45,667 nucleotides of DNA. Origin: Pseudonocardiaceae bacterium (GTDB lineage Bacteria > Actinomycetota > Actinomycetes > Mycobacteriales > Pseudonocardiaceae). The position numbers were made by a program, and so were the translations under genes. The DNA lies in contig JBOHFJ010000001.1 in the NCBI GenBank assembly GCA_050699655.1, forward strand, positions 1 through 45,667. The letters run 5' to 3'. Below the pieces are notes generated by a model, which had not been told where the DNA came from, searched no databases, and worked only from the letters and a program-made list of their open reading frames with translations. This document shows positions 11,665 through 33,324 of the stretch, piece by piece; the first letter of the stretch is position 1, and each line of letters opens with the position of its first letter.

Positions 11665-11736
11665 CGCTGTCGGCTAACTCCCGCAGCGCGATGCTCGCGG
11701 ACACCGGGCCTGCGACGCGATGGGCACCCGCGCTGG

Positions 11737-12957: not shown

Positions 12958-15900
12958 GGCGCCTCCCTGGGTTCCTGGGCGATCCAACTCAGGGCGGCGG
13001 CGCGGGCGAGGTGGTGGCAGGCCCGTTCGGTCTCCGGGGCGATTCCGACCATCCGGATGCTGTGCAGGTGCAGCACAGCGGGCAGCACCAAGTCTGGGTC
13101 GATCTCGCCGGTAGTGGTGATCGTCTGGCGGTACGTGGTGAGCGCGGTGCGTCGTCGGGCCCACGTGGTTGCGATGTGTTCGCCACCGGGTACGGCGCGC
13201 AGCGCGGCCCACCGATCACGCGGGTTCGCCAGGTGGATCGCTTGGTCGTGGACCTCCCGGGCGGGCGCCTGGGCCGGGGTCTTGTCGACGTGGTCGATCA
13301 GCCAGCGCATGCCGTCACTCACGCTTCCGGTGAGGGACGTGGTCAGGTCGACCAGGCTTGCGGCGATGATGGCGTGCTGGTGCGGGGCGCCGCTGCCCCC
13401 GGTGTGTGTCAGCTGCGCGATCGCCGCCGCCGAGTCAGCGTCGAACACCGACTCGGCGGCGGCCATCGCCGCGCCACAGCCGAAGCGTCCAGTCTCCGGG
13501 TAGTAGGTGTCCACCTGCACTTGGCCGATGAGGCCGAGGCGCCGCAGACCGGTGGCCCAGGCACCGACACGCTGAGCGATCTCGCCGAACGCGTCGGCGC
13601 CAGACAGTCGGATTCGCAGGAGTAGATGGTGCTCGGGGTCCTGATACCGCAGGAACCACCACTGCGGCGGGTTGTCCCCTGTGGACAACAGGCATGGGAG
13701 ATGGGTGACGAGAATGGCGGTGTGCCGGTCCGGGTGCCCGTACAATTTCACGAACAGCCACTCGCTACTGCCGGGCAGGTGCCCGTGTTCGCGGCTGGTC
13801 GTGCGGATTGGGGAGGACCGTCGCGGGACGGGGGGCCACACAGGCTTGCTGGTGGACGCCAAGGGCACGACGATTTCGTGGGCACGCCCGTCGAGCCACC
13901 CGAACGCGTCGGTGTCCGGTGCTTCGCGCACGGTGACGTGCCCGGTACGGTCCAGGTCAGACCGCAACAGGTGCAGGTGTGCGGGCTCGTCCAGGTCCAG
14001 GCGTATGCGACGGTCGTCAGCACCGAGGTAGACCGCATCCGGGACGCGTGCCCGGTGCCGCCAGTCCGCCAGGCTTTGAACCCATTCCGGCCACGGGGCG
14101 CTGTGTCCCGGAAGGTTAGTGGCCGTCAGAGTCCAGCGAGCCGGGGACAAGGTCGTGCGCCGGTATCGGATTCTGGGCAGGAACGGCAACCGGTGAGCCG
14201 CTCCCCAGGAGAATGGCCCGCACGCGGCGGCCCGCGCCTTGGTGATCTCGCAGAGGAACCGTAGGAGTGGATGCGCGGCGTTGGTGAGCTCCACGGCGCT
14301 GAACACTGTGGGTTCCACCGGCTGCCCCCGCGACAATGACATCAGGTACAGCCGCTGGGCATCGGCGCTCACGGCGATGTCATCCAGCGGTATCACGCCG
14401 CCGCCGGTGTGGTGCTCGGCTAGGGAGACGAGGTGCGGCAGGACCGCAGGACTGCGGGTGACGTTCTCGGTCCGCGTGTAGAGCGGGGGACACGACACCT
14501 GTACCGACAGCGCGCCGTCGTTCACCGTGGGCAGCCGCGCGTACGCGCCGACCACGCGGTCACGGTCCCCGGGGTCGAAAAGGTCGAGAAACCGCCCGGT
14601 CATGGTTCCGACCGCACGGGACACGCCAACGACAGCGAGAGCGAACTCGCCCCGGTCGACTGCGCCCCGCGTCGGCGCATGAACGCAGAAAATCAATTCG
14701 GTGTGCGGCTGCGCCTGCGCCTTCGTGAAATCTTTAGCCATCAGATCCGCAATCAGCTGGTCATCGAAAACGACTTCGATTCTCTGATCCATCGCGGCCT
14801 GCTGCGCCAGAGCCAACAGCCGCATATCCCGCTCGGACAGACCCGACACAGACAGCTCAAGACGCGAGTCCCGATACCCGGCGGGAAACCCGAGCCCGGA
14901 GTCGGCGTTCAGGATTTCCAGGACGGGGACGACGGCGCCGATCCCATACCTTTCGAGGAACCGCAAATGGAAGTCCTTCCACCCGGGATAGCCGAACGGG
15001 TACGGCGTCAGGTGTGTGAGTGCCGCCGTTGCGGTTTCGGCTTCGCGCGCCACTGACTGCGGCAGTACCAGGGTGCAGTCGACTCGAAGGTCAACCACGA
15101 GCGGTCGCTCGGTCATGGAGACGGCCGCCATCCGCCGCGACGCAGAGCTTCGCAGGTCACGTCCCACGGCGGGCGACAACACACGGTTGTGGCGGGACAG
15201 TTCAGCGTGGACCTCGCGAAGCTCCTGGAGGAGGAGCGCCGCCCGGGGCACCTCCTCGGCGCCTATCACGGTCAACTTCCCGAGAACATAGGCCAGCGGA
15301 TCGGTCACCGTCATGGGGGGACGCAGGCTGGTGACCAGGATGCGCTGAGCCACCAGCTCGGCCAGCATCCCCTCTATCACCGACTCCGGTGTCCCGGGGA
15401 AGCCAGCCGTCAACTTTGCGGTCAGGTCACTGACGCGGATGGGCGACCGGGCGGCCTGCCTGACGGTCTCGACCGCCCTGGTGTGACGCACCGAAACCTC
15501 CGCCGGAGCGCTCTGGCCCGACCCGGCGGGCTGCTGTTGGCAACCCACCACTAGCCTCCCATCACGGACGAAAGCCAGGTTGTTCAACACGACCAGCAGC
15601 CGACCCCGCAGCTCTGGGCACGTCTCCAAGCGAGTGATCACACCCGCCAGCCACACGGCGTCAACCCGCGCTACAGCGTGGTGATCCTCCCCGTAGCGCA
15701 CCGCCAGTTCGGAACCGAAATGAGCTGGCGCCACCCCGGCGAACAGGCCGAATGGCGTCGCCCGGCTCGTCATCCGCAGCAGATACCGGATCACGGACAC
15801 CACAGCGCGCCGCACCTGGCGCGCCTGCTGACGGTGCCCGGTACACACCTCACGAACCCGGCGGGCCAGCACTGGGCTGGCCACCTCGACGGCCGCCGCG

Positions 15901-16061
15901 ATCGCCTCCTGTGCCCACACCTGGTCCAGCCAGCGGACCCACCGCGCCACCTGCTCATTCGTGCTGCCGGTCAGGTCCGGCCACGGCAGAACATCCAACC
16001 CGGACATACGGGTGGCCACCCGCACCATGGCCTCATCAACGACCCTGTACAACCGCAACAC
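12954..16061 (-). CDS. lanB: Class I lanthipeptide dehydratase LanB (full length: glutamylation plus elimination domains)
   Basis: 1035 aa. N-terminal Lant_dehydr_N-like region (ASPVLARRV..., RATPFGLFAGV) and a C-terminal SpaB_C region (WLFVKLYG...WWFLRYQDPEHHLLLRIRL). Confidence 0.93.
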   Translation of the reverse strand: MLRLYRVVDEAMVRVATRMSGLDVLPWPDLTGSTNEQVARWVRWLDQVWAQEAIAAAVEVASPVLARRVREVCTGHRQQARQVRRAVVSVIRYLLRMTSRATPFGLFAGVAPAHFGSELAVRYGEDHHAVARVDAVWLAGVITRLETCPELRGRLLVVLNNLAFVRDGRLVVGCQQQPAGSGQSAPAEVSVRHTRAVETVRQAARSPIRVSDLTAKLTAGFPGTPESVIEGMLAELVAQRILVTSLRPPMTVTDPLAYVLGKLTVIGAEEVPRAALLLQELREVHAELSRHNRVLSPAVGRDLRSSASRRMAAVSMTERPLVVDLRVDCTLVLPQSVAREAETATAALTHLTPYPFGYPGWKDFHLRFLERYGIGAVVPVLEILNADSGLGFPAGYRDSRLELSVSGLSERDMRLLALAQQAAMDQRIEVVFDDQLIADLMAKDFTKAQAQPHTELIFCVHAPTRGAVDRGEFALAVVGVSRAVGTMTGRFLDLFDPGDRDRVVGAYARLPTVNDGALSVQVSCPPLYTRTENVTRSPAVLPHLVSLAEHHTGGGVIPLDDIAVSADAQRLYLMSLSRGQPVEPTVFSAVELTNAAHPLLRFLCEITKARAAACGPFSWGAAHRLPFLPRIRYRRTTLSPARWTLTATNLPGHSAPWPEWVQSLADWRHRARVPDAVYLGADDRRIRLDLDEPAHLHLLRSDLDRTGHVTVREAPDTDAFGWLDGRAHEIVVPLASTSKPVWPPVPRRSSPIRTTSREHGHLPGSSEWLFVKLYGHPDRHTAILVTHLPCLLSTGDNPPQWWFLRYQDPEHHLLLRIRLSGADAFGEIAQRVGAWATGLRRLGLIGQVQVDTYYPETGRFGCGAAMAAAESVFDADSAAAIAQLTHTGGSGAPHQHAIIAASLVDLTTSLTGSVSDGMRWLIDHVDKTPAQAPAREVHDQAIHLANPRDRWAALRAVPGGEHIATTWARRRTALTTYRQTITTTGEIDPDLVLPAVLHLHSIRMVGIAPETERACHHLARAAALSWIAQEPREAP

Positions 16062-16076
16062 CCCCAGGGCCGCCAG

Positions 16077-16094
16077 GTCGGGCTGGTGCCCGAC
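16077..16094 (-). terminator. GC-rich stem-loop between lanA and lanB (possible partial terminator/attenuator)
   Basis: gtcgggc-tggt-gcccgac gives a perfect 7-bp stem and a 4-nt loop, about 20 nt after the lanA stop. There is no U-tract. Confidence 0.35.
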
Positions 16095-16115
16095 TGGTTA
16101 TCGGGATCAAGCAAC

Positions 16116-16298
16116 CTATTGGAAGCTGACGCAGGCGCTTTCGCAGGTATGGCCACAGTTGTCGCTGGTGCTTCGCATCAGCTCGGCGTCCACCGGAGCG
16201 GACTCGACGATGCTGACGTCGAGATCGAACTCCGGATCCACTGCTGTCGTGCTCGGTACTACAGTTTTCGCAACTACCGAGTGTGTCTGGATTGTCAT
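16116..16298 (-). CDS. lanA: FxLD-family class I lanthipeptide precursor (LanA)
   Basis: 60 aa. AGGAGG lies 6 nt upstream of the ATG. The leader contains EFDLDV (FxLD / FNLD-box). The C-terminal STSDNCGHTCESACVSFQ is rich in Ser/Thr with 3 Cys. The gene sits immediately upstream of lanB. Confidence 0.85.
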   Translation of the reverse strand: MTIQTHSVVAKTVVPSTTAVDPEFDLDVSIVESAPVDAELMRSTSDNCGHTCESACVSFQ

Positions 16299-16360
16299 AC
16301 GGATCCTCCTCGTTTGATGGTGGTGTTCCGAGTGGCCTGGCCTCGGTCAGGACGCCGCTG

Positions 16361-17569
16361 TCAGGGCCAGGAGATCACGACCCGGGTGTGCTTTTTGTCG
16401 ATGACACGACCGTCGGGGAGGTCCGCATCCGGGGTGGCTGCTGGGTGGGCCCCAATACGCGCGTTCAGGCTGCTGCCGTCCCAGGACTGGATATGCCGGA
16501 CCATCTGGTTAACGAGTTCCCGGGCGGCTGAGCCGTGCCCGTATGCCCCGAACTCGAATCGCTGCCTGTCGGGGGTGACCGGGCGCAAACCGAGGTAGGC
16601 GAGGTTCCCCCCCTCCACGGCCGTCGGGACACCCAAGGGCCACGCGTGAGCGACGATGCCGCAATCTACGGCCTCCCGCTGCGCGGTGAGGCGACCGAAA
16701 TTCGGCAGGGTGACGGCCAGCCACAGGTGAAGGCCATCGAACCGCTCGTCGCTACTGAGCATCACCTGCGACCATGCCTGCACCCTCGGCTGAAACAAAG
16801 TCTCCCGCAAAAGATCGGCGTCTACCTGCTGCCCGTCATCCACCCGAAGGCCGACCGCTTCCCCGTCGAGGAGGACCAGCCGCTCCCGGTACTCTCCGGC
16901 GCCTTGCATCGGCACAAAACCACACAGTTCGTAGGACCGGCTTGCCAGGTGCCCACCGTCGCGCTCGAACACGATCGAGCGGGTCAGGCCGCGCATCCGG
17001 AGGGGAACGACGAGCCTGCCGCCCTCGGCGAGCTGGTCAGACCATGCAGGGGGGATGTCCCAGGCCCCGGCGGTCACGATGATCCGGTCGTAGGGAGCAT
17101 AGTCAGGCACGCCGCCCTCAGCGTCAGCCAACACCACGGTGACCCGCCGGTAACCCGCCGCCGCGAGGCAACGCCGGGCCCGGTCCACCACGTCCGGGTC
17201 GATATCAACCGTGGTGACCTGCCCCTCCTCGCCGACCAGCTCCGCGATCAGTGCCGCGTTGTAACCACCCGATCCGATCTCCAGAACCCGCATGCCCGGG
17301 GCGAGCTGCGCCTGCTCCAGCATCATGGCCTGCAGCCACGGCGCGGATATCGAGCTGATGGTGATGCCGTGCTGGTCTCGCTTGGTGCGCACAGCATCTT
17401 GGGCATAGGACTGCTCCAGCGTTGCCCCGGGCGCGAACAGGTGCCGGGGCACCGTGCGGAACGCGGTCTCGACCTCGTTCGACACGATCGTGCCCTCGAC
17501 CACCATGTCGTCGGTGAGCCTGCTCCGAAGTTGCGCGGCACGGGCTGAATCCGCGATCACTTCTGGCAC
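16361..17569 (-). CDS. PIMT-like O-methyltransferase of the FxLD lanthipeptide system (LanS_A/OlvS_A-like)
   Basis: VPRHLFAP and VLEIGSGGYNAALIAEL, the protein-L-isoaspartate O-methyltransferase SAM motif, plus a roughly 190-aa C-terminal extension. GTG start with GAGAGGGGAA RBS. Directly upstream of lanA. Confidence 0.85.
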   Translation of the reverse strand: MPEVIADSARAAQLRSRLTDDMVVEGTIVSNEVETAFRTVPRHLFAPGATLEQSYAQDAVRTKRDQHGITISSISAPWLQAMMLEQAQLAPGMRVLEIGSGGYNAALIAELVGEEGQVTTVDIDPDVVDRARRCLAAAGYRRVTVVLADAEGGVPDYAPYDRIIVTAGAWDIPPAWSDQLAEGGRLVVPLRMRGLTRSIVFERDGGHLASRSYELCGFVPMQGAGEYRERLVLLDGEAVGLRVDDGQQVDADLLRETLFQPRVQAWSQVMLSSDERFDGLHLWLAVTLPNFGRLTAQREAVDCGIVAHAWPLGVPTAVEGGNLAYLGLRPVTPDRQRFEFGAYGHGSAARELVNQMVRHIQSWDGSSLNARIGAHPAATPDADLPDGRVIDKKHTRVVISWP

Positions 17570-17671: not shown

Positions 17672-19252
17672 TCACGCAGGCCGGTCCGGCGTAGGGTCTG
17701 GCTCCAGCTCTGTAGGGGTGGAAGCGGGATGGGTGCAGAACTCAGCCAGGTCATCCCGCAACGTGGTCATGGTGCAGGACGCGAGATCCGGCCGCCGGGC
17801 CAGCAGCGTGTGCAGAGACCGAGCCCGGCCAATCACCGGGAAAGTGCGGTATTCAGCTCCGGTGGAGTGCAGCACGGGGGCGAGGTGCTCACCGACGGCG
17901 TCTAACTCGCCTCGAGCCAAGTGGGCAAGCGCAAGATCGAAACGGGCGGAGGCGACATACATCACTTTGGGCCGGGACTCGGCGGAGAACTCGTCCAGGG
18001 CGGTACGCGCCCAGCCCAGGGCGGCCTCCAGATGCTCCGTGCCGCCAAGAGCGTAATGGGCCTCGCTAGCGTAATAAGCGGCCGTCCCGGCGTTGAAGCC
18101 GAAGATGCCCGGTTCATCGTCGGTGAGCTCAGTGGGGGCGCTCGCGGCGAGCGCCAGAGCCCGGCTGACCTCGCCGGGTTGACGACGAGCGGCGTTGGCC
18201 CGGGCCTGCTGGCTAGTCAACCTCAGCAGGGTGGTACCGCTGGTAGCGTCGGGCAGGGCGGACTCCATGAGCTGGGCAGCCTCGTCGTAGCAACCGTCCC
18301 AATAGGCGACGTTGGACTGGACCCAGCGGACGAAGACTCGTAGCGGGGTGTACCCGGACACCTCGGCGCAGTGCAGCGCGGTACGCGCATGGGTGTTCGA
18401 GGAGTGCGGATGCCCCAGGTTGAACGTGACGAGAGACAACAACCCGCAGACCTGCCCGGCGATCTTGTACAAGTCCGCGGTGTGGCGGGGCTGCTGGCGC
18501 CCGGCGATCAGGGTGAACACATCATCACGGGCACGGAGCAGACTCGCGAAGATGCTGGCGGGTGGGTCGATCTGCTCACGCCGGGCGATCTCAGCAACGT
18601 CGGCGGTCATCTGGTCGAGCACGTCGTCGTCAACGTTGGTGGTGGCGCTCCAGCGATGGAACTGGGCGGACTCCTCGGCGGCCATGATGACCTCCTCGCG
18701 GATCGGCGTACCGCGCGCGTCACAGCGCACGACGCGTCGGCTCCCCCAGGCCCCACCAGTGTCACCTCCCCCGCGCGCCACCACACGGCCGGGGTCAGCG
18801 TGCTCACCTACCGTAGCGCGGACAACGGGAACCAACGCCCCCGTCGTCACGGGTGCGGGTGGGTGACCGGTGGTGAGCAGGCTGCGGTCGGCTGGGGTGA
18901 GCTGCTCCAGATCATCAGCGTCGACCAGCTGGGACACCGTGCACCCATGCCCGAACGTCGCCGCGAGCTGAGCCAGGTAGCGCGGGCTGGGCGGGCTGCC
19001 GCCGTGCGGCCAGGCCTCGAACTCGCTGACCCGATTGTCCGACAGCTTCGCCCCCGGATGCGCGGTGTTGTACCGCTGCGCCACCTTCCACTGCGGCCAC
19101 CCCAACGCATGCCGCCACGCCACCCTCGGCCGCAAATTGAACCGCCGACCCAGCTCCCCGGCGATCTGGGACACCGAGCACCCCCACGCCCGCATCCGAT
19201 CCCGAAGCTGATCACGTTCGGCCTTCACCGAAGTCCCCGCCCTGCGCGGCAT
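17672..19252 (-). CDS. HTH (XRE-like) transcriptional regulator with a C-terminal TPR-like helical domain
   Basis: N-terminal CSVSQIAGELGRRFNLRPRVAWRHALGWPQWKVAQRYN...SEFEAWP HTH region, then a roughly 350-aa all-helical region. ATG 19252 is chosen; the upstream track extension looks non-coding. Confidence 0.75.
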   Translation of the reverse strand: MPRRAGTSVKAERDQLRDRMRAWGCSVSQIAGELGRRFNLRPRVAWRHALGWPQWKVAQRYNTAHPGAKLSDNRVSEFEAWPHGGSPPSPRYLAQLAATFGHGCTVSQLVDADDLEQLTPADRSLLTTGHPPAPVTTGALVPVVRATVGEHADPGRVVARGGGDTGGAWGSRRVVRCDARGTPIREEVIMAAEESAQFHRWSATTNVDDDVLDQMTADVAEIARREQIDPPASIFASLLRARDDVFTLIAGRQQPRHTADLYKIAGQVCGLLSLVTFNLGHPHSSNTHARTALHCAEVSGYTPLRVFVRWVQSNVAYWDGCYDEAAQLMESALPDATSGTTLLRLTSQQARANAARRQPGEVSRALALAASAPTELTDDEPGIFGFNAGTAAYYASEAHYALGGTEHLEAALGWARTALDEFSAESRPKVMYVASARFDLALAHLARGELDAVGEHLAPVLHSTGAEYRTFPVIGRARSLHTLLARRPDLASCTMTTLRDDLAEFCTHPASTPTELEPDPTPDRPA

Positions 19253-19517
19253 CGCCCACCCCCCAGCACTCATATGCAGGACCACACGGTAACCCCAGCC
19301 ACCGACAAAACGGGCCACCCCGCGACCTGATCGGCCGGGAAGATTCCCCGTCAGCGGCGGGTTCATCCAGCTCAGACAGGCCGAGCAGGTCGGGCGAATG
19401 TTCCCGGCCACCGATCCTGGCGGCTGGAGTCGTGCCACATGACCGACGCGACCACCAACCGAGAGTCGAGAGCTTCGTCCGCGACGAGGGCAATCCGATC
19501 ACAAGACGGTAGGAAGC

Positions 19518-20057
19518 TCAGCGATGGTACTGCGGCCGAGCCGCCCACCACGGCTCAAACGCGGTGGCGGCTGCCCAAGCGGCATCGCGGGCGGCGACAT
19601 AACGCGGTGTCTCCATCTCAGGTAGCGCCTCGCCACCGACGAACTGCCCGGCGGCGTCATAGTGCATCAACACGACCAGATCCTCATCGACCAGCCAGAA
19701 GTCGTGATCCACTAGGCTTGGCGGCTCGGGTGTGTCGGCGAGATCGAGGATGCGGACGTCCTCGCCCGCCTGCACGTTGTAGGCGTAGCCCCACTCGCAT
19801 TCGTAACGCAGGTACGGACCCAGTGGAGTGCGCAACACATGCACTCGGTGCCGGTAGTAACCGGAGTCCCGCTCGGCACGAAGCTCGTCCAGCCACGGCT
19901 GCTTGCGCTCCCACTTCGGTGCGGGCTCACCGTCGAGATAACGCCGGTAGTCCGAGCCATCGGAGGCCACCTCGTACACATCGAGAGTCTCCAGCCGAAA
20001 CAGCGAATGGCGACGGGCGTCCAACAACGCTCCCAGCGCATCAAGATCGGTGATCAT
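19518..20057 (-). CDS. DUF6879 family protein (paralogue 1)
   Basis: FRLETLDVYEV..., RVHVLRTPLGPYLRYECEWGYAYNVQAGEDVRILDL, DFWLVDEDLVVLMHYDAAGQF. This pattern is shared with the other two paralogues here. Confidence 0.75.
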   Translation of the reverse strand: MITDLDALGALLDARRHSLFRLETLDVYEVASDGSDYRRYLDGEPAPKWERKQPWLDELRAERDSGYYRHRVHVLRTPLGPYLRYECEWGYAYNVQAGEDVRILDLADTPEPPSLVDHDFWLVDEDLVVLMHYDAAGQFVGGEALPEMETPRYVAARDAAWAAATAFEPWWAARPQYHR

Positions 20058-20081: not shown

Positions 20082-20627
20082 TCAGACGACGCGGTGATGT
20101 TGCGCATGGCGGTCCCACCACTGGGTGAACGGCTCGGCCGCGTTCCATGCGGCGTCAGCGGCGAGCCGGTGTCGGTCCGCGTCCGCGACATCAAGGAGCT
20201 GTGCGCCGCGGAACTGGCCGTCGTGGTCATAGTGCATCTTCACCACATCGCGCCCGTCGATCAGCGTCCAGTCGCCGGGCACAGAGAGTAGCTCATCAGG
20301 CGGCGACTGCTCGGCGAGATCCAGAACACGGACGAGTTCCCCGGCTGCAACGTTGTGGCGGTAACCCCAGTCACAGGCGTACCGCTCGTAGTCGCTGGGG
20401 GGATCGTGGATGACTCGGACACGCCGCCGTGGGCGGCCCTCGTTCGCCCACCTCCGCAGGAGATCCAGCCACGGCCGGCGTGCCTCCCAGTCGGGCTCCA
20501 ACTCGCCATTGAGCCAACGACGGAAGTCACTGGTGGTGATCGCGGTGTCGTAGCTGGGCAACGTCTCGATCCGGAGCAGATCATGCCGCGTGGTCTCAAT
20601 GACTTCCGTGAGCTGCTCCAGCGTCAT
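20082..20627 (-). CDS. DUF6879 family protein (paralogue 2)
   Basis: LRIETLPSYD..., RVRVIHDPPSDYERYACDWGYRHNVAAGELVRVLDL, DWTLIDGRDVVKMHYDHDGQF. ATG 20627 aligns with the start of paralogue 1. Confidence 0.75.
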   Translation of the reverse strand: MTLEQLTEVIETTRHDLLRIETLPSYDTAITTSDFRRWLNGELEPDWEARRPWLDLLRRWANEGRPRRRVRVIHDPPSDYERYACDWGYRHNVAAGELVRVLDLAEQSPPDELLSVPGDWTLIDGRDVVKMHYDHDGQFRGAQLLDVADADRHRLAADAAWNAAEPFTQWWDRHAQHHRVV

Positions 20628-20845
20628 CAAGTTCACGGCTCCGCCCGGCTGAACGTGTCGGGCTATCGACGACGACCCCGACCTGGTCGACCCGGCCCTC
20701 GACCGGCCCTCCCACATCGGGTATCGGCCCAGGCCCATGGTCGCGGACGGCGCGAGCGGGCTGCCCGAGCACGGCCCTTCGATTGGATCAACGACCAGCA
20801 GCTCGGGCCTGATCCAGGCGAAGGCAACTCCGTTACCTTAGATTC

Positions 20846-20911: not shown

Positions 20912-21124
20912 ATGCGCCTGCTCAACCCAGACACCAGTTCCAAGGGTATGGACGGCTGCGACCGACTCTGGGATGAGGGCGAGGACGTGATGGTCCAGCT
21001 CCGTCCGGCCACCACCGCCGACCACCGGTCGATCCTGCCCAACTACGTTCCGGAGGGGGAGATCTTGGGCCGGGTGTCGAAGACGGCGCTACTTGAAGCG
21101 GCTCGCAACCTGGGGTTGGTATGA
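20912..21124 (+). CDS. Small hypothetical protein (70 aa)
   Basis: AAGGGG RBS lies 5 nt before the ATG, and the stop overlaps the next gene's start (ATGA at 21121). No recognisable motif. Confidence 0.4.
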   Translation: MRLLNPDTSSKGMDGCDRLWDEGEDVMVQLRPATTADHRSILPNYVPEGEILGRVSKTALLEAARNLGLV

Positions 21125-21642
21125 GCGACATCGACGTCATCGGCCTGTACCAGGGGGTCAGGCACCGAGCGCTGCGGCTGGAGACCCGGCAGCGGTACGC
21201 GGTTCCCTGGGAGGAGGAAGATCTCGCGGCGTGGCGGCGAGGTGAACCCGAGCCGACGACCCCGCAGACGGACAGCACGATGGAGACCCTCCGGCTGGTC
21301 ACCGAGTCCGGCCGGCGGATCGGCCGGGTCCGGTTCGTGGAGCTGCCGCTGACCGAGTACTCGCGGCACGAATTCGAGGTTGCCTACCCGAGGCTCACCG
21401 CGATCGGTGAAGAGATCCACATCCTGGACCGGGCCCTGCACCCGGAGTTCGACCACGTCCGCGAGGACTTCGTGGTCTTTGACGATAACTCTGTGATGTG
21501 GTATCGCTACACGACCGAGGACATCCTGACCGGCTATGACTACACCGAGGAGCCCGACGTGGTTTGCCGCTGCATGGCGCTGGCCGAGGAAGTGCGCGCC
21601 GCGGCGGTGCCCTACCGCGAGTTCCTGCCCCGCCTCAGTTGA
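21121..21642 (+). CDS. DUF6879 family protein (paralogue 3, more divergent)
   Basis: LRLETRQRYAVPWEEEDL..., RVRFVELPLTEYSRHEFEVAYPRLTAIGEEIHILDR, DFVVFDDNSVMWYRY. Confidence 0.75.
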   Translation: MSDIDVIGLYQGVRHRALRLETRQRYAVPWEEEDLAAWRRGEPEPTTPQTDSTMETLRLVTESGRRIGRVRFVELPLTEYSRHEFEVAYPRLTAIGEEIHILDRALHPEFDHVREDFVVFDDNSVMWYRYTTEDILTGYDYTEEPDVVCRCMALAEEVRAAAVPYREFLPRLS

Positions 21643-22505
21643 GTTCCGCATTCGGCAAGAGCACGGCCCGGCAGCGCCGGCTGGGCGGGCTGCTGCGCCG
21701 GCTGCGCAAGTCCGCCGATCTGTCCGGACCGGTCCTGGCCGGCCGGCTGGGCGTCTCCCAGTCACATCTGTCGCGGGTGGAGCTGGGTGAGGCGGTCGCC
21801 ACCGCCGAGCTGGTCGACCGCTGGACCCGCGAGACTCGGGCAAGTCACGTGGACCGACAAGCGGCTGCCGCCTTGGCGGAAGCGGTCGCGGCGGAGTTCA
21901 TCACCTGGCGGGAAGCGCTCTCCAGCGGCCTGGCGAAGTTGCAACGCGACGCCCTCGCTGCGGAGGCCGCCGCGACGACGAGAATCGCGTACGTGCCGGG
22001 TCTGATCCCGGGCCTGATGCAGACCGCCGAGTACACCGCCCATCTGGTAGCCGAAGACAACCCGGACCACGACGATGTCACCGAGGCGGTGGCGGCGCGG
22101 ATGCAGCGCCAAGTCGTCCTTTACAGCCGGGGCAAGACGCTGCGGTGGGTGATCGGGGAGGCCGGGCTGCGGTGGCGGGTTGGGCCGCCGGAGGTCATGG
22201 CCGCCCAACTGGACCGCCTCGCGACACTGGCGGTCGAGCCACATCTGGACGTCCGGGTGCTGCCGTTTGAGCGCACCGGGCCGGTGTGGCACGACCACGG
22301 TTTCACGATCCTGGCGGGCCGAACCGACGGCGAGCCAGACCTGGTCAATCTGGAGCTGCTGACCGGAATGGTCAACGTCACCGACCCGACGGATGTTGCG
22401 CAGTACCGTGCTGCCTACGAGCGGCTGGCGGACCTGGCGCTTCGCGGCGTCGAGGCCGTTCCGTTGATCCACCGGGTGAGAACCGAGTTGGTGACAGCAC
22501 ACTGA
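21639..22505 (+). CDS. XRE-type HTH regulator with DUF5753 domain (Scr1/WhiJ-like family)
   Basis: LRRLRKSADLSGPVLAGRLGVSQSHLSRVELG HTH, then YVPGLIPGLMQTAEYTAHLV, typical of DUF5753. The start is tentatively TTG 21639, overlapping the upstream stop (TTGA). ATG 21564 is the alternative. Confidence 0.8.
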   Translation: MSSAFGKSTARQRRLGGLLRRLRKSADLSGPVLAGRLGVSQSHLSRVELGEAVATAELVDRWTRETRASHVDRQAAAALAEAVAAEFITWREALSSGLAKLQRDALAAEAAATTRIAYVPGLIPGLMQTAEYTAHLVAEDNPDHDDVTEAVAARMQRQVVLYSRGKTLRWVIGEAGLRWRVGPPEVMAAQLDRLATLAVEPHLDVRVLPFERTGPVWHDHGFTILAGRTDGEPDLVNLELLTGMVNVTDPTDVAQYRAAYERLADLALRGVEAVPLIHRVRTELVTAH

Positions 22506-22810: not shown

Positions 22811-23069
22811 GCCGCAGTGGAGCTGCGCCTAGGGGTGCGCCGATCGCGTGGGTGTACGTGGAAGGTGGGTACACGATCCGCTGGCGACGGGGCGACCCGG
22901 CGGCCCATGTGCTGCGGGGCAGGCAGATGGACGACTACGGGACGACTACGGCATGGCGGGCGTGCTGGAGTCGCTTCTAGTGTCGCCGTCGGGATGGACC
23001 GACCTCGCGGAGATCCGCCAGCTCGGGCAGCGGTGGCGAAGCCAGCGCCGCAACCAGCAGAGCGCATGA
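22807..23069 (+). pseudogene. Small ORF B, interrupted by an 11-nt tandem duplication (about 83 aa if one copy is removed)
   Basis: Starting at ATG 22807 the ORF reads MSRSGAAPRGAPIAWVYVEGGYTIRWRRGDPAAHVLRGRQMDDYG and then shifts frame. Removing one copy of GACGACTACGG joins it in frame to MAGVLESLLVSPSGWTDLAEIRQLGQRWRSQRRNQQSA (stop at 23067-23069). Confidence 0.3.
22930..22951. repeat. Perfect tandem duplication of the 11-mer GACGACTACGG
   Basis: Read directly: 22930-22940 equals 22941-22951. Confidence 0.95.
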
Positions 23070-23105: not shown

Positions 23106-23447
23106 ATGACCACAGCGTTCGATGATCCGTTGGCTCCAGCCGGGGAGCAGTTCCCGCTGGGGCGGCCGGACACCGCGCCGCCATGCTGGGACGAGCCGTC
23201 GCCGCCTGGCGTGCGCACGTGGGGGTTGCGGCGGATGGGGCCAGTGATGACACCGTGCAGGCAATGGCTGTCGTGGGGTTACGACCACCGGCGCCAGCTC
23301 GCCACCGGCCCCGGCGGTGTGGCCTTGCTCGAGGTGGAAGAGGAGCCACCGACCGCGCCCACCACCACGACGGTCGACGGTGAGGACCCGCCCTCGTCTG
23401 AGGACTGGAAGAACGACTACACCGCCGACGAGCCGTTTCAGCCATGA
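23106..23447 (+). CDS. Graspetide (ATP-grasp-modified RiPP) precursor peptide
   Basis: The stop overlaps the ATP-grasp start (ATGA at 23444). GAAAGGG RBS lies 9 nt before ATG 23106 (the track uses GTG 23097). The C-terminus PTAPTTTTVDGEDPPSSEDWKNDYTADEPFQP is rich in Thr/Ser donors and Asp/Glu acceptors. Confidence 0.75.
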   Translation: MTTAFDDPLAPAGEQFPLGRPDTAPPCWDEPSPPGVRTWGLRRMGPVMTPCRQWLSWGYDHRRQLATGPGGVALLEVEEEPPTAPTTTTVDGEDPPSSEDWKNDYTADEPFQP

Positions 23448-24406
23448 CGGTGCTGATCCTGGCCACTGAGCGCGACATCAGCGCCGACCGGATGGTGCGG
23501 GCGCTCGCCGAGCGCGACGTGCCAGTGTTCCGCGCGGACCTGAGCTGGTTTCCCCAACAGCTCAGTGTCGACGCCGAACTCCGGGACGGTCAGTGGACGG
23601 GGCGGCTGGTGACGCCGTACCGCGAGGTGGCGCTCGAAGAGCTGCGATCCATCTGGTACCGCAATCCCTCGAGTTTTCGCTTCCCGGCGGCGATGAGCAC
23701 GACCGAACGGCGGCACGCCCAGCACGAGGCCAAGCTCGGCTTGGGTGGTGTGCTGGGCGCGCTGCCGGTGCGGTGGGTCAACCACCCCAGCCGGCACGCT
23801 GACGCCGGTTACAAGCCGCGCCAACTGGTCGCGGCCGCCCGCGCCGGTTTGAGCGTGGCGCCGACACTGGTCACCAACAACCCTGGCGCGGCACTCCGGT
23901 TCGCCGCGCGATGCGGCCCCGGAGGGGTGGTGACCAAGATGCTCGGCGCGTCCGCGATCTGTGAGCGGGGCGGGCGCCGGGTCGCGCTGACCCAGCGGTT
24001 GACCGACGCCGACTTCGATGATCTGCGAGGTATCGAGCTGACCGCCCACCTCATGCAGCGGTGGGCATCGAAGCGCGAGGAAGCCCGCGTCATCGTGATC
24101 GGGCACCAGGTGTTCGCGGTGGCGATCCGTGCGCACAGCCACGCCTCCTACGTCGACTGGCGAGCCGACTACAACGCCCTGAGCTACGAACGGATCCCGC
24201 TGCCAGATGACGTGGAGCACGGCATCCGCGCGGTCATGCGCGAGCTGGACCTGGTCTACGGCGCGTTCGACTTCGTGATCACTCCGGAAGCGGAGTGGAT
24301 CTTCCTGGAAGTCAACCCGGGCGGCCAGTTCGGCTTCTTGGAAGACCGCACCGACGCGCCGTTGACTGCGGTCCTCGCCGATCTGCTCGCCCAGGAGGCG
24401 CGGTGA
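23444..24406 (+). CDS. ATP-grasp ribosomal peptide maturase (SAV_5884-type graspetide ligase)
   Basis: MTVLILATERDISADRMVRAL..., KPRQL..A...GL.VAPTLVTN, and C-terminal YGAFDFVITPEAEWIFLEVNPGGQFGFLE, the ATP-grasp fold signature of this RiPP family. Confidence 0.9.
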   Translation: MTVLILATERDISADRMVRALAERDVPVFRADLSWFPQQLSVDAELRDGQWTGRLVTPYREVALEELRSIWYRNPSSFRFPAAMSTTERRHAQHEAKLGLGGVLGALPVRWVNHPSRHADAGYKPRQLVAAARAGLSVAPTLVTNNPGAALRFAARCGPGGVVTKMLGASAICERGGRRVALTQRLTDADFDDLRGIELTAHLMQRWASKREEARVIVIGHQVFAVAIRAHSHASYVDWRADYNALSYERIPLPDDVEHGIRAVMRELDLVYGAFDFVITPEAEWIFLEVNPGGQFGFLEDRTDAPLTAVLADLLAQEAR

Positions 24407-25671
24407 ACGACTGGGCTGACCGGGCGGCGGGACTCGCCGAGGAACTGGTCACCGCGGGCAAGCTGCGCTCACCGGAGTGGATCGCCGCGGTCCGGGCGAT
24501 TCCCCGGCACGAGCTCGTCCCCGTCTTCTACGAGCAGGACCCCGGCACGAGCGCGTGGCTCACCCGGGATGCGACCGACCCGGCCTGGCGGGAGCTGGTC
24601 TACGCCAACCGGGGCCTGTTCACCAAGATCGGCGAGACTGCGGGCTCGTGGGGTACCAGCGTCATTGGCCTGTCTTCCAGCAGCACCCCAGGGCTGATGA
24701 CCCGCATGCTAGAGGCCCTGGACGTGCGCGAAGGACACGACGTGCTGGAAATCGGCAGCGGCACCGGCTACAACGCCGCGCTGCTGTGCCACCGTCTCGG
24801 CAGCGAGCATGTCTTCTCCGTCGACAGTGACCCCGAGCTGGTCGAGCTGGCGCGTGATCGGCTCGCCCGCATCGGGTACCGGCCCACGCTGGTGGCCGCG
24901 GACGGCGGGAACGGGCTGCCCGAGCACGCCCCTTACGATCGGATTGTCGCCACCTGCTCGGTGCCAGCCATACCCTGGGCGTGGCTGGATCAGACCCGCG
25001 TCGGCGGGCTGATCCTGGCTGACCTCAAACTGTCCGTCCACGCCGGCAACCTCGTGTTGCTCAGGCGGTTCGCCGACCGCGCCGAAGGACGCTTCGAGCG
25101 CGCCTGGGCCGGGTTCATGGCGCTGCGCCTAACCACTCCAGCGGCCAAGACGGCGACCACCGCTGGCCACCAGGTGACCCGCGACCGCGCTCAGGCGACA
25201 CCGCGCACCACCCAGCTCGACCAGCTTCGCCCCTGGGACAACCTCATCACCTGGTTCCTCGCCCAGCTCACCGTGCCCAGCGAGATCGGCTACGGGCACA
25301 CTGTCAGCGAAGGGCGCCCCGGGGACGTCTTCCTCACCAGCGCGGATGGCTCCTGGTGTGAAGTCAGCAACCACGCAGACAACGGCATGAGACAGGTGTG
25401 GGAAGCCGGGCCCACCGCGCTGTGGCGCGCCGTCGAGGACGCCGACCAGCTGTGGCACGCGCTCGGCCAGCCCGGATGGGATCGTTTCGGCCTCACCGTC
25501 ACCGCCGAGCGGCAGTGGATCTGGCTCGACTCCCCCGGTTCACGAAGGCTGTTGGAGGGTGGAGACGATATCGGTGGAGCCCGAGTCGGGCTGGTTGGTG
25601 ACCGCCTGGCTCTGGACCAGGACATTGGCGAGGACAACCAGCGCGCCGACCACGATGAACACAATCAGTAG
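24403..25671 (+). CDS. PIMT-like O-methyltransferase of the ATP-grasp peptide maturase system (ThfM-like)
   Basis: GTG 24403 overlaps the ATP-grasp stop (GTGA), with AGGAGG 4 nt upstream. IPRHELVP and VLEIGSGTGYNAALLCHRLG form the PIMT SAM motif. The C-terminal substrate-recognition-like domain ends around QWIWLDSP. The last 40 or so codons run antisense to the DUF4389 gene. Confidence 0.85.
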   Translation: MNDWADRAAGLAEELVTAGKLRSPEWIAAVRAIPRHELVPVFYEQDPGTSAWLTRDATDPAWRELVYANRGLFTKIGETAGSWGTSVIGLSSSSTPGLMTRMLEALDVREGHDVLEIGSGTGYNAALLCHRLGSEHVFSVDSDPELVELARDRLARIGYRPTLVAADGGNGLPEHAPYDRIVATCSVPAIPWAWLDQTRVGGLILADLKLSVHAGNLVLLRRFADRAEGRFERAWAGFMALRLTTPAAKTATTAGHQVTRDRAQATPRTTQLDQLRPWDNLITWFLAQLTVPSEIGYGHTVSEGRPGDVFLTSADGSWCEVSNHADNGMRQVWEAGPTALWRAVEDADQLWHALGQPGWDRFGLTVTAERQWIWLDSPGSRRLLEGGDDIGGARVGLVGDRLALDQDIGEDNQRADHDEHNQ

Positions 25672-26352
25672 CCCGCGCCCACCGCCGGAGAGCACCAGCG
25701 GCCGGGTGCTGAGGGGGGCCGGCCCACCGGGAGCGCCGTATCCAGGAGCGGACGCCTCGTCGCCGAACACATGCTTGGGGTAGGCCGACGTCAGCATCCA
25801 GTAGTACGCCTGGTACCGCATCGAGTAGCGCAACACCGCGGCGGTGGCCTCAGCCAGCGGACGCGGCATCCGCCCGAGGATCAGCACCGCCAGCCAGCAG
25901 AAGAACGCGCACACCGCCCACCCGTACATCAGGACCGTGCTGATGATGGCCGCCGGGATCAGCAGCAGCAGCCGGAACAGCACGGCCAGCCGGTTCAGCC
26001 GGCCCGGCTCGACGAACACCTGCACCGGGTAGTCGGGCGGGCTGAAGGCCACCGGCGGATAACGGTCGACCAGCAGGTAAGCGTAGGCCATCACCCGGAT
26101 GTTGTAGGCGAGCACGCCGGTCAGGAACTCCGCGACCCACCGTGGCAGCCGGCCGAGAACGAGCGCGGCGAACCAGCCGGCGATGCTCACCAGCGTGGCC
26201 ACGAAGAGGAGCACATACAAAATAATGAACTGCGGGATCAGCAGCACGATCCGCACCAGCACGGTGAGCCGCCGCTGAGTCACCGGAAAGTCGATCTCCA
26301 ACTCGGGCAGCACCTCGCCTCCGGTCGTTGCCGGGGTCGCGGTCGGCAACAT
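25540..26352 (-). CDS. DUF4389 domain membrane protein (two DUF4389 repeats)
   Basis: RRLTVLVRIVLLIPQFIIL...GRLPRWVAEF...DRYPP, repeated as NRLAVLFRLLLLIPAAII...GRMPRPLAEA...SAYP. There is a C-terminal TM helix. ATG 26352 follows AGGAG by 8 nt (the track uses GTG 26361). Confidence 0.8.
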   Translation of the reverse strand: MLPTATPATTGGEVLPELEIDFPVTQRRLTVLVRIVLLIPQFIILYVLLFVATLVSIAGWFAALVLGRLPRWVAEFLTGVLAYNIRVMAYAYLLVDRYPPVAFSPPDYPVQVFVEPGRLNRLAVLFRLLLLIPAAIISTVLMYGWAVCAFFCWLAVLILGRMPRPLAEATAAVLRYSMRYQAYYWMLTSAYPKHVFGDEASAPGYGAPGGPAPLSTRPLVLSGGGRGLLIVFIVVGALVVLANVLVQSQAVTNQPDSGSTDIVSTLQQPS

Positions 26353-26454
26353 GTCGATCACTCCTAGCGGTGGGTTGGAGCTGGCGTGTCACCCCGGATC
26401 TTCGCACTTTCTCTCGATCGCGTGGACCGAATTGTGCCCGTGGGGGTGAGCTGG

Positions 26455-30796: not shown

Positions 30797-33055
30797 TTAG
30801 CTGCCCACCGACGCGCCTGGGCCGATAGCGGCAGGCTCTGCGGCGGCTTCGGCGTCGAGGCGGGCACCGAGGCGGGTGAAGGCGGCTCGCGCGGCGACCC
30901 GTTCACGCCGGGCCGTGTCAGGTCGGCCCGCTCGGTCCAGCGCGGTGGCCAGCAGCACCCGGGCACGCGCTGTTTCGTAGGGCGATCCGGCTTCCCTCCA
31001 CAGCTCAACACCCCGGCGCAACGGCGGCAGCGGGTCGCCCTCGCCGGTGGCCAACGCCAGCTCACCGCGAGCGCACTCAGCCGCCGCGAGCAGCGCCTTG
31101 CTGCCATAGATCCGTGCTGACTCAGCCAGCTCAGCCGCGGCGGCACGGGCCGTATCGAGATCGTCGACAGCCAGCGCGATACTCACCTGGTCAGGAAGCA
31201 ACCGGGTACGCTCCAAACGATCCCCGTCCTCGCCGGCCATCGCCGAATTAATCAAAGCGGCCGCCTCGGCGGGGCGGCGGCGCAGTAGCCGCAGCCGGGC
31301 CAAGCCGGGCAGTGGGCTGGCCCCCAGCTCCTCAGCCTTGGCGAAGGCCTCCTCGGCACTTGCGAGGTCGCCAATCCGCAACCGGATCTCACCAATGCTG
31401 GCGAAGGCGAGGCCGGCGTGGGCCAGGTCGATGCACTGCGTGCGTGCGCAAGCCTGGCGGGCTTGCTGCTCAGCCAGCGCCCAGGCGCCTCGACTGATCA
31501 TCATCCCGATGCGGTGAGTCTCGCTGTCTCCGGGGAAGCCGCTCAGCCCGGTGCGCGCGAAGCAGTCCTCGATGGCCTCGGTCCACTCTTCGGCGCGGCG
31601 GTAGTCGCCCAGCTCGTAGCAGGTGGTGATAGCCATACAGAAGATCGTCACAGTGGCGGCCGGCGGGAGGTCCCCGCTGAGCGCCATCGTCATGCCCTCG
31701 TCCAGCAGGGCCAGTCCCTCCGCGACCTGCCCACAGTGGATGAGCACTGAGCCCTGGAAGACCAGCCCGATGGCGTGCAGCTCGATGACGCCGTGCCGCA
31801 CGCCCACCTCGTAGGTCGACCGGGCGGCGGCCAGAGCGGCCGCATGGTCTCCCCTGCTCATCGCGACGCGGGTAGCCACCCAGGACAGGTACCCTTGCTC
31901 CGCACAGTCGGGCTCGGCCTCGAGCAGTCGCTTCGCGCGCTGGAACCAGCCGCTAGTCAACGCGAACTGCCGAAGACCGCCATGCTGCCTCGCCAGCCTG
32001 GCTGCGGCCAGCGCGGCCCGGCGGTGGTCGCCTGCCTGCAGGAAGGCGTGGTGGGCGCGCTGCCGAGCGGACAGCGACTCCCGGTAACGCCCCAGCCAGC
32101 ACGCCGCCTCCGCCAGGCCGTCGAGATCCGGAGCAGCCAGCGGACCCACCCGGTCCGCGGCGGACAACAGCTCGAAGGCGCACCTCCAGTCATGCGCGGC
32201 CAGCGCGGCGTGGGCCTCTAGCAACCTTTTCTCCAGTGCTGGCATCACCGCCGGTGTGAACGTCTCGAGCGGGCGCTGAGGCCGCGGTGGGCGCCAGTCC
32301 AGGTCGGGACGCTGGGCAAGTACCGCCTCATGCAGCCGGACCAGCTCCGGGCTCGGGTCGATACCAAGCTGCTCGGCGAGCTGCGCACGCAGCCGCGCGT
32401 AGGCCCCCAGTGCCTCACCCTGGCGCCCACACCGGTACCACGCCCGGATCAGCTGGGACCACAAACGCTCACGCAGCGGGTGCTCGACCACCGCCCGGCT
32501 CACCTCATCACACAACGCCGCATGCCGACCCAACGCGAGGTCAGCCTCCACACGATCCTCCACCACAGCGGCCCGCAGCTCAGTCAACCGAGCGATCTCA
32601 GCCTGGGCGAACAGCTCGAAACCAAACTCGGCCAACGGCTCACCACGCCACAGCGCCAGCGCGCCACGCAAGGTTTCAGCCGCCCGCACCGGATCGGAGA
32701 ACAGCGCGTCATGCCCATCCCGGGCCAACCGCTCGAATCGCACAGCGTCGACCGCGCTAGGTTCAACAGCCAGCACATAGCCCGGCCCACAGGTACGGAG
32801 CACACCGTCCCGGGCCCGCGGCGCACGATCAGGCTCAAGCGCCCGGCGCAGGTGAGACACGTAGGTCTGCAACGTGTTCCCCGCCGTAGCGGGCGGCTCA
32901 GCACCCCAGAGCACCTCAACCAGCCGGTCGACCGACACCACCTCGCTCACCTGCACCACAACCACAGCCAGCAGCAACCGCTCCTTCGCGCTGGACACCT
33001 CGACCCGACGACGCTGATCCAGCACCTCCAACGGACCGAGAATCGCAAACTCCAC
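30797..33055 (-). CDS. SARP-family regulator (OmpR-type wHTH + BTAD + TPR-like C-terminus), paralogue 1
   Basis: VEFAILGPLEV...LWG..PP......LQTYVSHLRRAL (wHTH); DAVRFERL...ALALWRGEPLAEF...RERLW.QLIRA.YRCGRQGEALGAYARLR (BTAD). No NB-ARC P-loop seen. GTG 33055 has GGGAGG 5 nt upstream. Confidence 0.85.
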   Translation of the reverse strand: MEFAILGPLEVLDQRRRVEVSSAKERLLLAVVVVQVSEVVSVDRLVEVLWGAEPPATAGNTLQTYVSHLRRALEPDRAPRARDGVLRTCGPGYVLAVEPSAVDAVRFERLARDGHDALFSDPVRAAETLRGALALWRGEPLAEFGFELFAQAEIARLTELRAAVVEDRVEADLALGRHAALCDEVSRAVVEHPLRERLWSQLIRAWYRCGRQGEALGAYARLRAQLAEQLGIDPSPELVRLHEAVLAQRPDLDWRPPRPQRPLETFTPAVMPALEKRLLEAHAALAAHDWRCAFELLSAADRVGPLAAPDLDGLAEAACWLGRYRESLSARQRAHHAFLQAGDHRRAALAAARLARQHGGLRQFALTSGWFQRAKRLLEAEPDCAEQGYLSWVATRVAMSRGDHAAALAAARSTYEVGVRHGVIELHAIGLVFQGSVLIHCGQVAEGLALLDEGMTMALSGDLPPAATVTIFCMAITTCYELGDYRRAEEWTEAIEDCFARTGLSGFPGDSETHRIGMMISRGAWALAEQQARQACARTQCIDLAHAGLAFASIGEIRLRIGDLASAEEAFAKAEELGASPLPGLARLRLLRRRPAEAAALINSAMAGEDGDRLERTRLLPDQVSIALAVDDLDTARAAAAELAESARIYGSKALLAAAECARGELALATGEGDPLPPLRRGVELWREAGSPYETARARVLLATALDRAGRPDTARRERVAARAAFTRLGARLDAEAAAEPAAIGPGASVGS
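31027..31189. repeat. 163-nt tract identical to 41700-41862 (inside the two SARP paralogues)
   Basis: Aligned by eye base for base, with mismatches immediately outside both ends. It encodes ...LPDQVSIALAVDDLDTARAAAAELAESARIYGSKALLAAAECARGELALATGEGDPL in both genes. Confidence 0.85.
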
Positions 33056-33324
33056 CGGTGCCTCCCAGAACCCGTTCCAGTGGCGCTTCAGCTGTCCCCC
33101 ATGCCGCCTGCTCCAGATCTCTCCAAGGATGCGGGGGGCGATACGAGCAAGAGCATAGACGCCAGTGAGCGGCGGTAGCCGCAGCCGGCCGCTGGCCGTG
33201 AGCGCCGCAGCCCGCCAGCCGCACTTGCACCACGCTTGCACCCTGGCTCCTAACCTGATCATGACTCGGTCTCACCGGATATTAAGGAGCCCTCGCGCGC
33301 TGATCAAGTTAGGAGCTGGCCGGT

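Follow-up and report, generated by a model that had tools for sequence, protein, structure and literature searches.

The window analysed here is positions 1 to 45,667 of contig JBOHFJ010000001.1 (assembly GCA_050699655.1, Pseudonocardiaceae bacterium). On its forward strand it carries a cassette (23106-25671) of three serial open reading frames (ORFs), encoding a precursor peptide, an ATP-grasp ligase and a PIMT-like O-methyltransferase (Table 1). The first-pass annotation had described these genes as linked by ATGA and GTGA overlaps, and both overlaps were confirmed in the sequence. The precursor stop and the ATP-grasp start share ATGA at 23444-23447, and the ATP-grasp stop and the methyltransferase start share GTGA at 24403-24406. 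The precursor ORF opens either at GTG 23097 or at ATG 23106; because its relatives start with MTTAFDDPLAP and AAAGGGTGAG precedes the ATG, the start was set at 23106, which gives a precursor of 113 aa. The GC content at third codon positions was 0.83 for the precursor, 0.87 for the ligase and 0.87 for the methyltransferase. For the remaining frames across the precursor it was 0.60-0.67, and the mean GC of the window is about 0.68.

The ligase matched TIGR04187 ('GRASP_SAV_5884') at model positions 1-311 of 312 with 373.8 bits (cut-off 350, E = 6e-112), which bears out its earlier placement in the SAV_5884-type ATP-grasp family of RiPP systems (RiPP, a peptide that is synthesised ribosomally and modified post-translationally). 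It carries the PF21068 MvdD pre-ATP-grasp domain and aligned end to end with MdnC (5IG9), MdnB (5IG8), 9BOU, CdnC and AMdnB, the FLEVNPGGQFG segment included. The likeness to the microviridin ligases of solved structure (MdnC, MdnB and CdnC) consists in this full-length ATP-grasp alignment (E = 1e-42 to 1e-35), and the scores against the microviridin equivalog models fell below their cut-offs (TIGR04184, 195 bits vs 475; TIGR04185, 182 vs 425). Microviridin-type systems differ from the window cluster: their leaders are short and of PFFARFL type, their topologies are cages that include an amide link, and they have no methyltransferase.

The methyltransferase ORF encodes 422 aa from the GTG at 24403. 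It matched TIGR04188 ('ATP-grasp peptide maturase system methyltransferase') at positions 1-361 of 363 with 372.9 bits and E = 2e-111, the cut-off being 380. The methyltransferases of intact relatives scored 354-364 bits and are thus also under the cut-off, so that the whole clade falls short of it and the window gene is not defective in this respect. The PCMT domain was recovered by PF01135 (95 bits) and by further PCMT-fold matches, and an S-adenosylmethionine (SAM) motif GSGTG is formed by G118-G122. Residues W351-P357 read WHALGQP and match WxxxGxP, the motif of the extra C-terminal domain that sets apart RiPP-associated PIMT homologues (PMC13001092). The match to the whole TIGR04188 model, the extra C-terminal domain and WxxxGxP together support the earlier view of this protein as the PIMT homologue of an ATP-grasp system. 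The PCMT domain also matched housekeeping PIMT models with 83-101 bits, as it would if the enzyme were an ordinary protein-repair PIMT, the ATP-grasp protein had some other substrate and the small ORF upstream were no substrate at all. Those matches, however, were far under the cut-offs of the models concerned (159-359), whereas TIGR04188 was matched over its whole length; moreover, the genes overlap by 4 nt, and in about 27 loci the precursor is found together with the two enzymes. This explanation, to which we assign next to no probability, is effectively refuted by the family models and the conserved synteny.

Homologues of the precursor in the protein collection numbered 47, all from Pseudonocardiaceae genomes or metagenomes, with a best identity of 87%. 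Against TIGR04186 (ATP-grasp-modified RiPP) the precursor scored 18.9 bits, below the cut-off of 25; its close relatives scored 19-24 and a short-type Lentzea precursor 33. These sub-cut-off scores account for the label 'hypothetical protein' given to the relatives, and the cut-off serves model-based annotation and is no criterion of chemistry. The characterised precursors ThfA, AmdA, GsaA and SsfA were taken from an excerpt of the supplementary table of PMC10787088 (hereafter the table excerpt) and aligned with the window precursor, to which they are 25-28% identical overall. The leader motifs were recovered in this alignment. F16-P-L-G-R20 lines up with AFPLGR of ThfA and HFPLGR of AmdA, and Y59-D-x3-Q64 (YDxxxQ) with YDPDQQ and YDEDAQ of the characterised precursors. 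R37-T-W-G40 lines up with RPFG of ThfA, the tetrapeptide that is the key ThfB recognition sequence (PMC13003496). Thr38 stands in the window where the consensus RPWG has Pro, and the R, W, G and L of the recognition motif are invariant in the window's own family alignment. The leader of about 80 aa had been called unusually long, but this was not borne out: the leader of ThfA has 67 aa and that of AmdA, by the table excerpt, 85 aa before a 29-aa core (PMC13003496; PMC10787088), so that the length is normal for the class.

The precursor C-terminus reads ...PTAPTTTTVDGEDPPSSEDWKNDYTADEPFQP, exactly as in the first-pass annotation, and conservation was counted over 62 family members with numbering from ATG 23106. 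Thirteen positions were invariant in all 62 cores (A84, T86, T87, D91, G92, E93, D94, P96, S97, E99, D100, N103 and D104). T83 is Thr in 60 sequences and Ser, a conservative donor substitution, in the other two, and P95 was found in 61/62. The earlier proposal of four consecutive Thr and two Ser as donors, many Asp/Glu as acceptors, one Lys and an Asp-Gly pair could therefore be narrowed. The Asp-Gly proved invariant and T83, T86 and T87 conserved, whereas the run of four Thr and the single Lys were not; T88 and T89 vary, and K102 is Lys in 12/62 sequences only, for which reason a core Lys was rejected as a conserved amide donor. Asp91-Gly92 is the sole Asp-Gly of the core and aligns with the Asp-Gly of ThfA, AmdA, GsaA and SsfA. 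As Pro lacks an amide hydrogen, no imide can arise at D94-P95. In one family member, P0020, Asp-Asp takes the place of the otherwise invariant Asp-Gly (...TVDDEDPPSSEDW...), which is either a natural n+1 test for imide formation or a sequencing error.

Two precursor types were distinguished in the family. The short type ends in ...EDWxND, exactly at D104, as ThfA ends at its outer acceptor, whereas the long type, which includes the window precursor, continues with Y-x-P-D-E-P-x-x-P and has D108 in 47/48 long cores. Some more distant precursors (P0022, P0024, P0033, L012 and L015) reach 142-164 aa and bear a second, degenerate core-like segment, ...TTGSxGSEDPxDEDWxPDFTP.... This degenerate copy comes first, ahead of the canonical PPTAPTT..DGEDPPSAEDW core, and has no Asp-Gly; precursors of this type may be two-core precursors.

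The definition of the graspimiditides as a RiPP class dates from 2021-2023, and more than 1,400 clusters are catalogued but only four products characterised. The class is defined by a precursor together with two enzymes, one of the ATP-grasp family and the other a PIMT-like O-methyltransferase (10.1101/2023.06.21.545981; PMC13001092), and its cores have an N-terminal stem rich in Thr/Ser, a loop with a conserved Asp-Xaa (in most cases Asp-Gly) and a C-terminal stem rich in Asp/Glu (10.1101/2023.06.21.545981). The window cluster has the three-gene composition, the genes being translationally coupled, the TIGR04187 ligase, the WxxxGxP motif with a GxGxG SAM site, and the RPFG-type tetrapeptide R37-T-W-G40. 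Its core provides T83/T86/T87 for the first stem, D91-G92 for the loop and E99/D100/D104/D108 for the second stem, all invariant or nearly so over the 62 sequences. Neither in the cassette nor adjoining it did the annotation of the window contain a protease or transporter gene, and clusters of the class usually have none (10.1101/2023.06.21.545981). We conclude that the cluster very probably encodes a graspimiditide (group 13 graspetide) system of A-B-M type, with the pathway and product proposed below. This agrees with the earlier assignment to the aspartimidylated graspetides, for which TIGR04187, the PIMT homologue, the leader motifs shared with ThfA and AmdA and the invariant Asp-Gly speak. 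The likeness to the ThfA/ThfB/ThfM architecture held for the three protein families and failed for their arrangement, since the thf genes are ordered B-A-M and those of the window A-B-M (precursor, ATP-grasp, methyltransferase). Gene content, enzyme family membership, conservation of the leader and core motifs and purifying selection are direct observations.

The four characterised products are fuscimiditide, amycolimiditide, albusimiditide and SsfA(BM). Their maturation begins in every case with nested Thr-Asp omega-esters, which the ATP-grasp enzyme introduces and which give a stem-loop. Only the cyclised peptide is then a substrate of the PIMT homologue, which methylates one Asp of its loop, and the nitrogen of the next Gly closes an aspartimide that persists or opens mainly to isoaspartate (isoAsp; PMC13001092). 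The chemistry proposed for the window cluster, including the sequence of its steps, the map of cross-links and what becomes of the imide, is modelled on these relatives. The ATP-grasp enzyme would bind the precursor leader, with R37-T-W-G40 as the likely docking site, phosphorylate core side-chain carboxylates with ATP and couple them to Thr hydroxyls, yielding nested omega-ester macrocycles in a stem-loop. The inner ester would join Thr87 to Asp100 and the outer one Thr83 to Asp104. The PIMT homologue would act solely on the cross-linked peptide and methylate Asp91 with SAM, and the Gly92 amide nitrogen would displace methanol to give an aspartimide, which may persist or open mainly to isoAsp.

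The cross-link map was predicted by pairing the most conserved donors and acceptors by equal interstitial spacing, as proposed by Choi et al. (10.1101/2023.06.21.545981). The core spacing, T83-x3-T87-x3-D91G92-x7-D100-x3-D104, mirrors that of fuscimiditide, which was mapped experimentally as T3-x3-T7-x2-D10G11-x6-D18-x3-D22. Applied to the conserved residues, the rule predicts T83 and T87 as donors and D100 and D104 as acceptors, hence the two esters named above together with the aspartimide at Asp91-Gly92. The predicted loop enclosed by the esters has 12 residues, TTVDGEDPPSSE. A further link via the invariant T86 or E99 or via D108 is possible on the conservation pattern.

The fate of the imide may differ among members of the class, and the same cluster and enzymes could yield an isoaspartate (beta-linked) peptide in which the aspartimide is only a short-lived intermediate. 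SsfM of Streptomyces sp. F-3 turns Asp81 into an isoAsp/Asp mixture via the methyl ester and the imide, and what was purified of SsfA(BM) was isoAsp/Asp, against the imide for each of the other three members (PMC13001092). In the window precursor the residues after the Asp-Gly are acidic (E93 and D94) and the loop is larger than that of fuscimiditide, so the stability of the imide is not to be assumed. On the other hand, three of the four characterised members were isolated as the aspartimide (PMC13001092), and ThfM and AmdM re-methylate isoAsp, which pushes hydrolysis products back to the imide. We regard an isoAsp end product as possible, although less likely than not.

Genome comparisons placed the cassette in a wider family. 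When GTDB species representatives were scanned with the family alignment, 30 loci came up, every one in Pseudonocardiales; some belong to cultured strains of Saccharopolyspora, Lentzea, Saccharothrix, Actinokineospora, Actinosynnema, Allokutzneria, Tamaricihabitans and Pseudonocardia. In about 27 of the 30, the precursor is followed by the ATP-grasp gene and then the methyltransferase gene. Pairwise dN/dS between the window and the intact loci L003-L006 was 0.15-0.21 in the precursor gene, 0.18-0.23 in the ligase gene and 0.23-0.24 in the methyltransferase gene, for which the full range was 0.23-0.31. Values of 0.15-0.31 in all three genes reflect purifying selection and, at the sequence level, indicate functional genes.

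Several observations weigh against the assignment and the product proposed for it. The methyltransferase and the precursor both lie just below their NCBIfam cut-offs, and do so across the clade. The two-ester map leaves the invariant T86, E93, D94 and E99 and the conserved D108 unexplained, and an alternative map of three esters (T87-E99, T86-D100 and T83-D104) would fit nearly as well. In the window methyltransferase, a read-through tail has taken the place of some 20 native residues at the C-terminus. The DNA homology with every relative ends at 25535-25538; the methyltransferases of the relatives end in ...WLDxPxSxHxWPL and have 375-402 aa in total. The tail has GC contents of 0.82, 0.38 and 0.64 at the three codon positions, unlike a native frame, and the last 45 codons of the ORF are non-homologous read-through into a convergent DUF4389 gene. 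The TIGR04188-matched domain and the WxxxGxP motif both lie upstream of the breakpoint. Finally, four close relatives have, as far as their assemblies show, lost parts of the cluster. In the closest one, L031 (5252-5371; 87-93% DNA identity), the precursor has lost 80 codons in frame, and with them the recognition motif and the entire core, while both enzymes are intact, and L001 (at about 7183), L002 (about 5938) and L007 (about 6014-6035) have lost 0.6-1.0 kb across the ATP-grasp end and the methyltransferase start. These losses imply that the system is dispensable in the lineage and suggest repeated independent loss in the clade, unless they are metagenome assembly artefacts.

The deletions in L031, L001, L002 and L007, the replaced methyltransferase 3' end and a frameshift by an 11-bp duplication in the neighbouring small ORF are what would be seen if the cluster were a decaying remnant that no longer makes its product in this organism. 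The three ORFs of the window are, however, full length without stops or frameshifts, and their domains as defined by hidden Markov models are complete. Of the invariant residues of core and leader, the window precursor lacks only P38 of RPWG, where it has Thr, and dN/dS against the intact L003-L006 was 0.15-0.25. We therefore consider decay unlikely, and an intact graspimiditide cluster remains the better description of the locus.

The DUF4389 membrane-protein gene at the breakpoint is an insertion relative to L031 and L001. With its 3' end it reaches 132 bp into the methyltransferase ORF, where it has displaced the native C-terminus of the methyltransferase. As it is convergent and absent from this position in these two closest relatives, it was rejected as an exporter or immunity gene.

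Among the characterised systems, the window cluster resembles in core layout fuscimiditide (ThfA/ThfB/ThfM of Thermobifida fusca), with which it shares the three protein families, the FPLGR, RP[FW]G and YDxxxQ leader motifs and the T-x3-T...DG...D-x3-D pattern. It differs in gene order and, with a precursor identity of 27%, in sequence. The fuscimiditide loop has 10 residues and that of the window 12, with an invariant, acidic and Pro-rich DGEDPPSSE; the window core further has a 9-residue tail, YTADEPFQP, with the conserved D108, and the additional invariant T86 and E99. Amycolimiditide (AmdA/B/M of Amycolatopsis cihanbeyliensis), albusimiditide (GsaA/B/M) and SsfA(BM) share with the window the A-B-M order, a stem-loop of Thr-Asp esters and the loop Asp-Gly. 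The AmdA leader is long as well, and Amycolatopsis belongs to the Pseudonocardiaceae, as do the window's relatives. Unlike the peptide predicted for the window, these three products draw on T-x-T-x-T and D-x-D-x-D ladders for their four or five esters and lack a DGEDPPSSEDW loop, and their precursors are 25-28% identical to that of the window.

The core had been thought distinct from known examples, which holds for the four characterised graspimiditides and not for the catalogue. In the alignment with the four precursors, the core was identical to none of the characterised ones, whereas the DGEDPPS[SA]EDW core is already present in the table excerpt, where DGEDPPS occurs at least 7 times among PAMT-associated graspetides. 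The same core is listed there, uncharacterised, for Lentzea terrae (WP_112273543.1), Lentzea albidocapillata (WP_030478080.1), Saccharothrix sp. ALI-22-I (WP_077009677.1) and Pseudonocardia sp. MH-G8 (WP_143517266.1), and tailed relatives with a related core for Actinoalloteichus (APU18742.1) and Kibdelosporangium (WP_052478492.1) (PMC10787088). The catalogued precursors in the excerpt have the same three-gene cassette and are identical to the window at every invariant position of PTAxTTxxxDGEDPPS[SA]EDWxND. Full-length precursor identity was 50% to Lentzea terrae and 44% to Pseudonocardia sp. MH-G8. The DGEDPPS entries of the excerpt stop at ...ND, whereas the window clade joins the core to the Y-x-P-D-E-P tail; the Actinoalloteichus type shares the tail as ...DFVPDEPFPV (...DGDEGPSEDFSYDFVPDEPFPV). 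The combination of core and tail found in the window was absent from the entries listed in the excerpt, with no match for SEDWINDY or DEPFQP. A PDB sequence search with the 40-aa core found no match even at E = 10, the fuscimiditide and amycolimiditide entries being too short or different. A full-text literature search for 'graspimiditide' found no characterised member beyond the four of the March 2026 review (PMC13001092). The core thus differs from all characterised graspimiditides, its motif is already catalogued, and its product has been neither made nor solved.

What the window adds is an intact, selection-maintained example of a core type that nobody has made, whereas knowledge of the class is unchanged by it. 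It is a reasonable target for structural and functional work and a test case for the equal-spacing rule. The biological function is, to our knowledge, known for no graspimiditide. The invariance of the DGEDPPS[SA]EDW loop across Pseudonocardiaceae genera suggests that the loop has a specific binding role. More tentatively, the DGEDPPSSEDW-core clade might form a structurally new, fuscimiditide-like bicyclic hairpin in which T86, E99 or D108 provides a third link (a Thr-Glu or a non-nested ester, neither of which has been seen in graspimiditides) and the acidic, Pro-rich 12-residue loop and the conserved C-terminal tail are displayed as a target-binding epitope. We hold this proposal to be doubtful, but if it were true, the function of the peptide would bear on what aspartimidylated RiPPs are for.

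Table 1 Features of the cassette and its surroundings in the 45,667-nt window
Feature	Position	Strand	Evidence or remark
Precursor gene, 113 aa	23106..23447	+	ORF, 47 homologues, weak TIGR04186 match; leader about 80 aa, core about 33 aa
Leader motif F16-P-L-G-R20	23151..23165	+	Alignments with family, ThfA and AmdA
Leader motif R37-T-W-G40	23214..23225	+	Family consensus RPWG; counterpart of RPFG
Core region P81-P113, PPTAPTTTTVDGEDPPSSEDWKNDYTADEPFQP	23346..23444	+	Residue counts over 62 family members; fuscimiditide-like spacing
Asp91-Gly92, predicted methylation/aspartimide site	23376..23381	+	62/62 conservation; alignment with characterised precursors
ATP-grasp graspetide synthetase, 320 aa	23444..24406	+	TIGR04187, PF21068, alignment to solved ligases
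PIMT-like aspartyl O-methyltransferase, homologous part (residues 1-378)	24403..25536	+	TIGR04188, PF01135, motifs
SAM motif GSGTG	24754..24768	+
WHALGQP (WxxxGxP)	25453..25473	+
Methyltransferase ORF, non-homologous 45-codon tail	25537..25671	+	Read-through antisense to DUF4389 gene 3' end
DUF4389 membrane-protein gene	25540..26361	-
Small ORF, about 83 aa	22807..23069	+	No Pfam family
FxLD precursor, 60 aa, leader EFDLDV, core ...STSDNCGHTCESACVSFQ	16116..16298	-	TIGR04363, 66 bits
FxLD methyltransferase	16361..17569	-	TIGR04364, 558 bits
LanB	12954..16061	-	FxLD cluster
LanC-like	11737..13212	-	FxLD cluster
Split elimination domain	10678..11664	-	FxLD cluster
NsdA-family TPR regulator	17672..19438	-
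DUF6879 paralogue	19518..20057	-	Between the two RiPP clusters
DUF6879 paralogue	20082..20738	-	Between the two RiPP clusters
DUF6879 paralogue	21121..21642	+	Between the two RiPP clusters
HTH_31/DUF5753 regulator	21564..22505	+	Between the two RiPP clusters
SARP/BTAD regulator	30797..33262	-
Two-module nonribosomal peptide synthetase (NRPS), 2715 aa, embedded methyltransferase, terminal reductase domain	33325..41472	+

The small ORF is a conserved one, situated 37 nt upstream of the precursor gene. The 11-bp tandem duplication at 22930-22951 (GACGACTACGG x2) shifts its frame in the window, and the ORF is intact in L002, L003, L004, L006, L007 and L031. More than 330 proteins of its family are encoded in Pseudonocardiaceae metagenome genomes, with several copies per genome. 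A role as a fourth cluster gene or partner was rejected, as copies occur away from ATP-grasp genes (once, in L032, by DUF6879/DUF5753) and the ORF is absent from more distant graspimiditide loci. Pairs of DUF6879 and DUF5753 genes recur upstream of the cassette in L001, L005, L006, L007, L020 and L031.

About 5.5 kb upstream of the cassette, a complete FxLD-type class I lanthipeptide cluster, which has a PIMT homologue of its own, occupies 10678-17569 on the reverse strand, so that the window holds two RiPP clusters dependent on PIMT homologues. The FxLD cluster is a candidate 'lanthimiditide'. Its core has Asn, not Gly, after the Asp, and the SDNCG core type is catalogued with at least 31 entries in the table excerpt (PMC10787088). 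A functional link between the two clusters was rejected: no such neighbour was found within 6 kb in the 30 related loci, and the two methyltransferases are only 35% identical, in the SAM domain only. Downstream of the cassette, the SARP/BTAD regulator and the NRPS (30797-41472) make up a third biosynthetic locus of the window.

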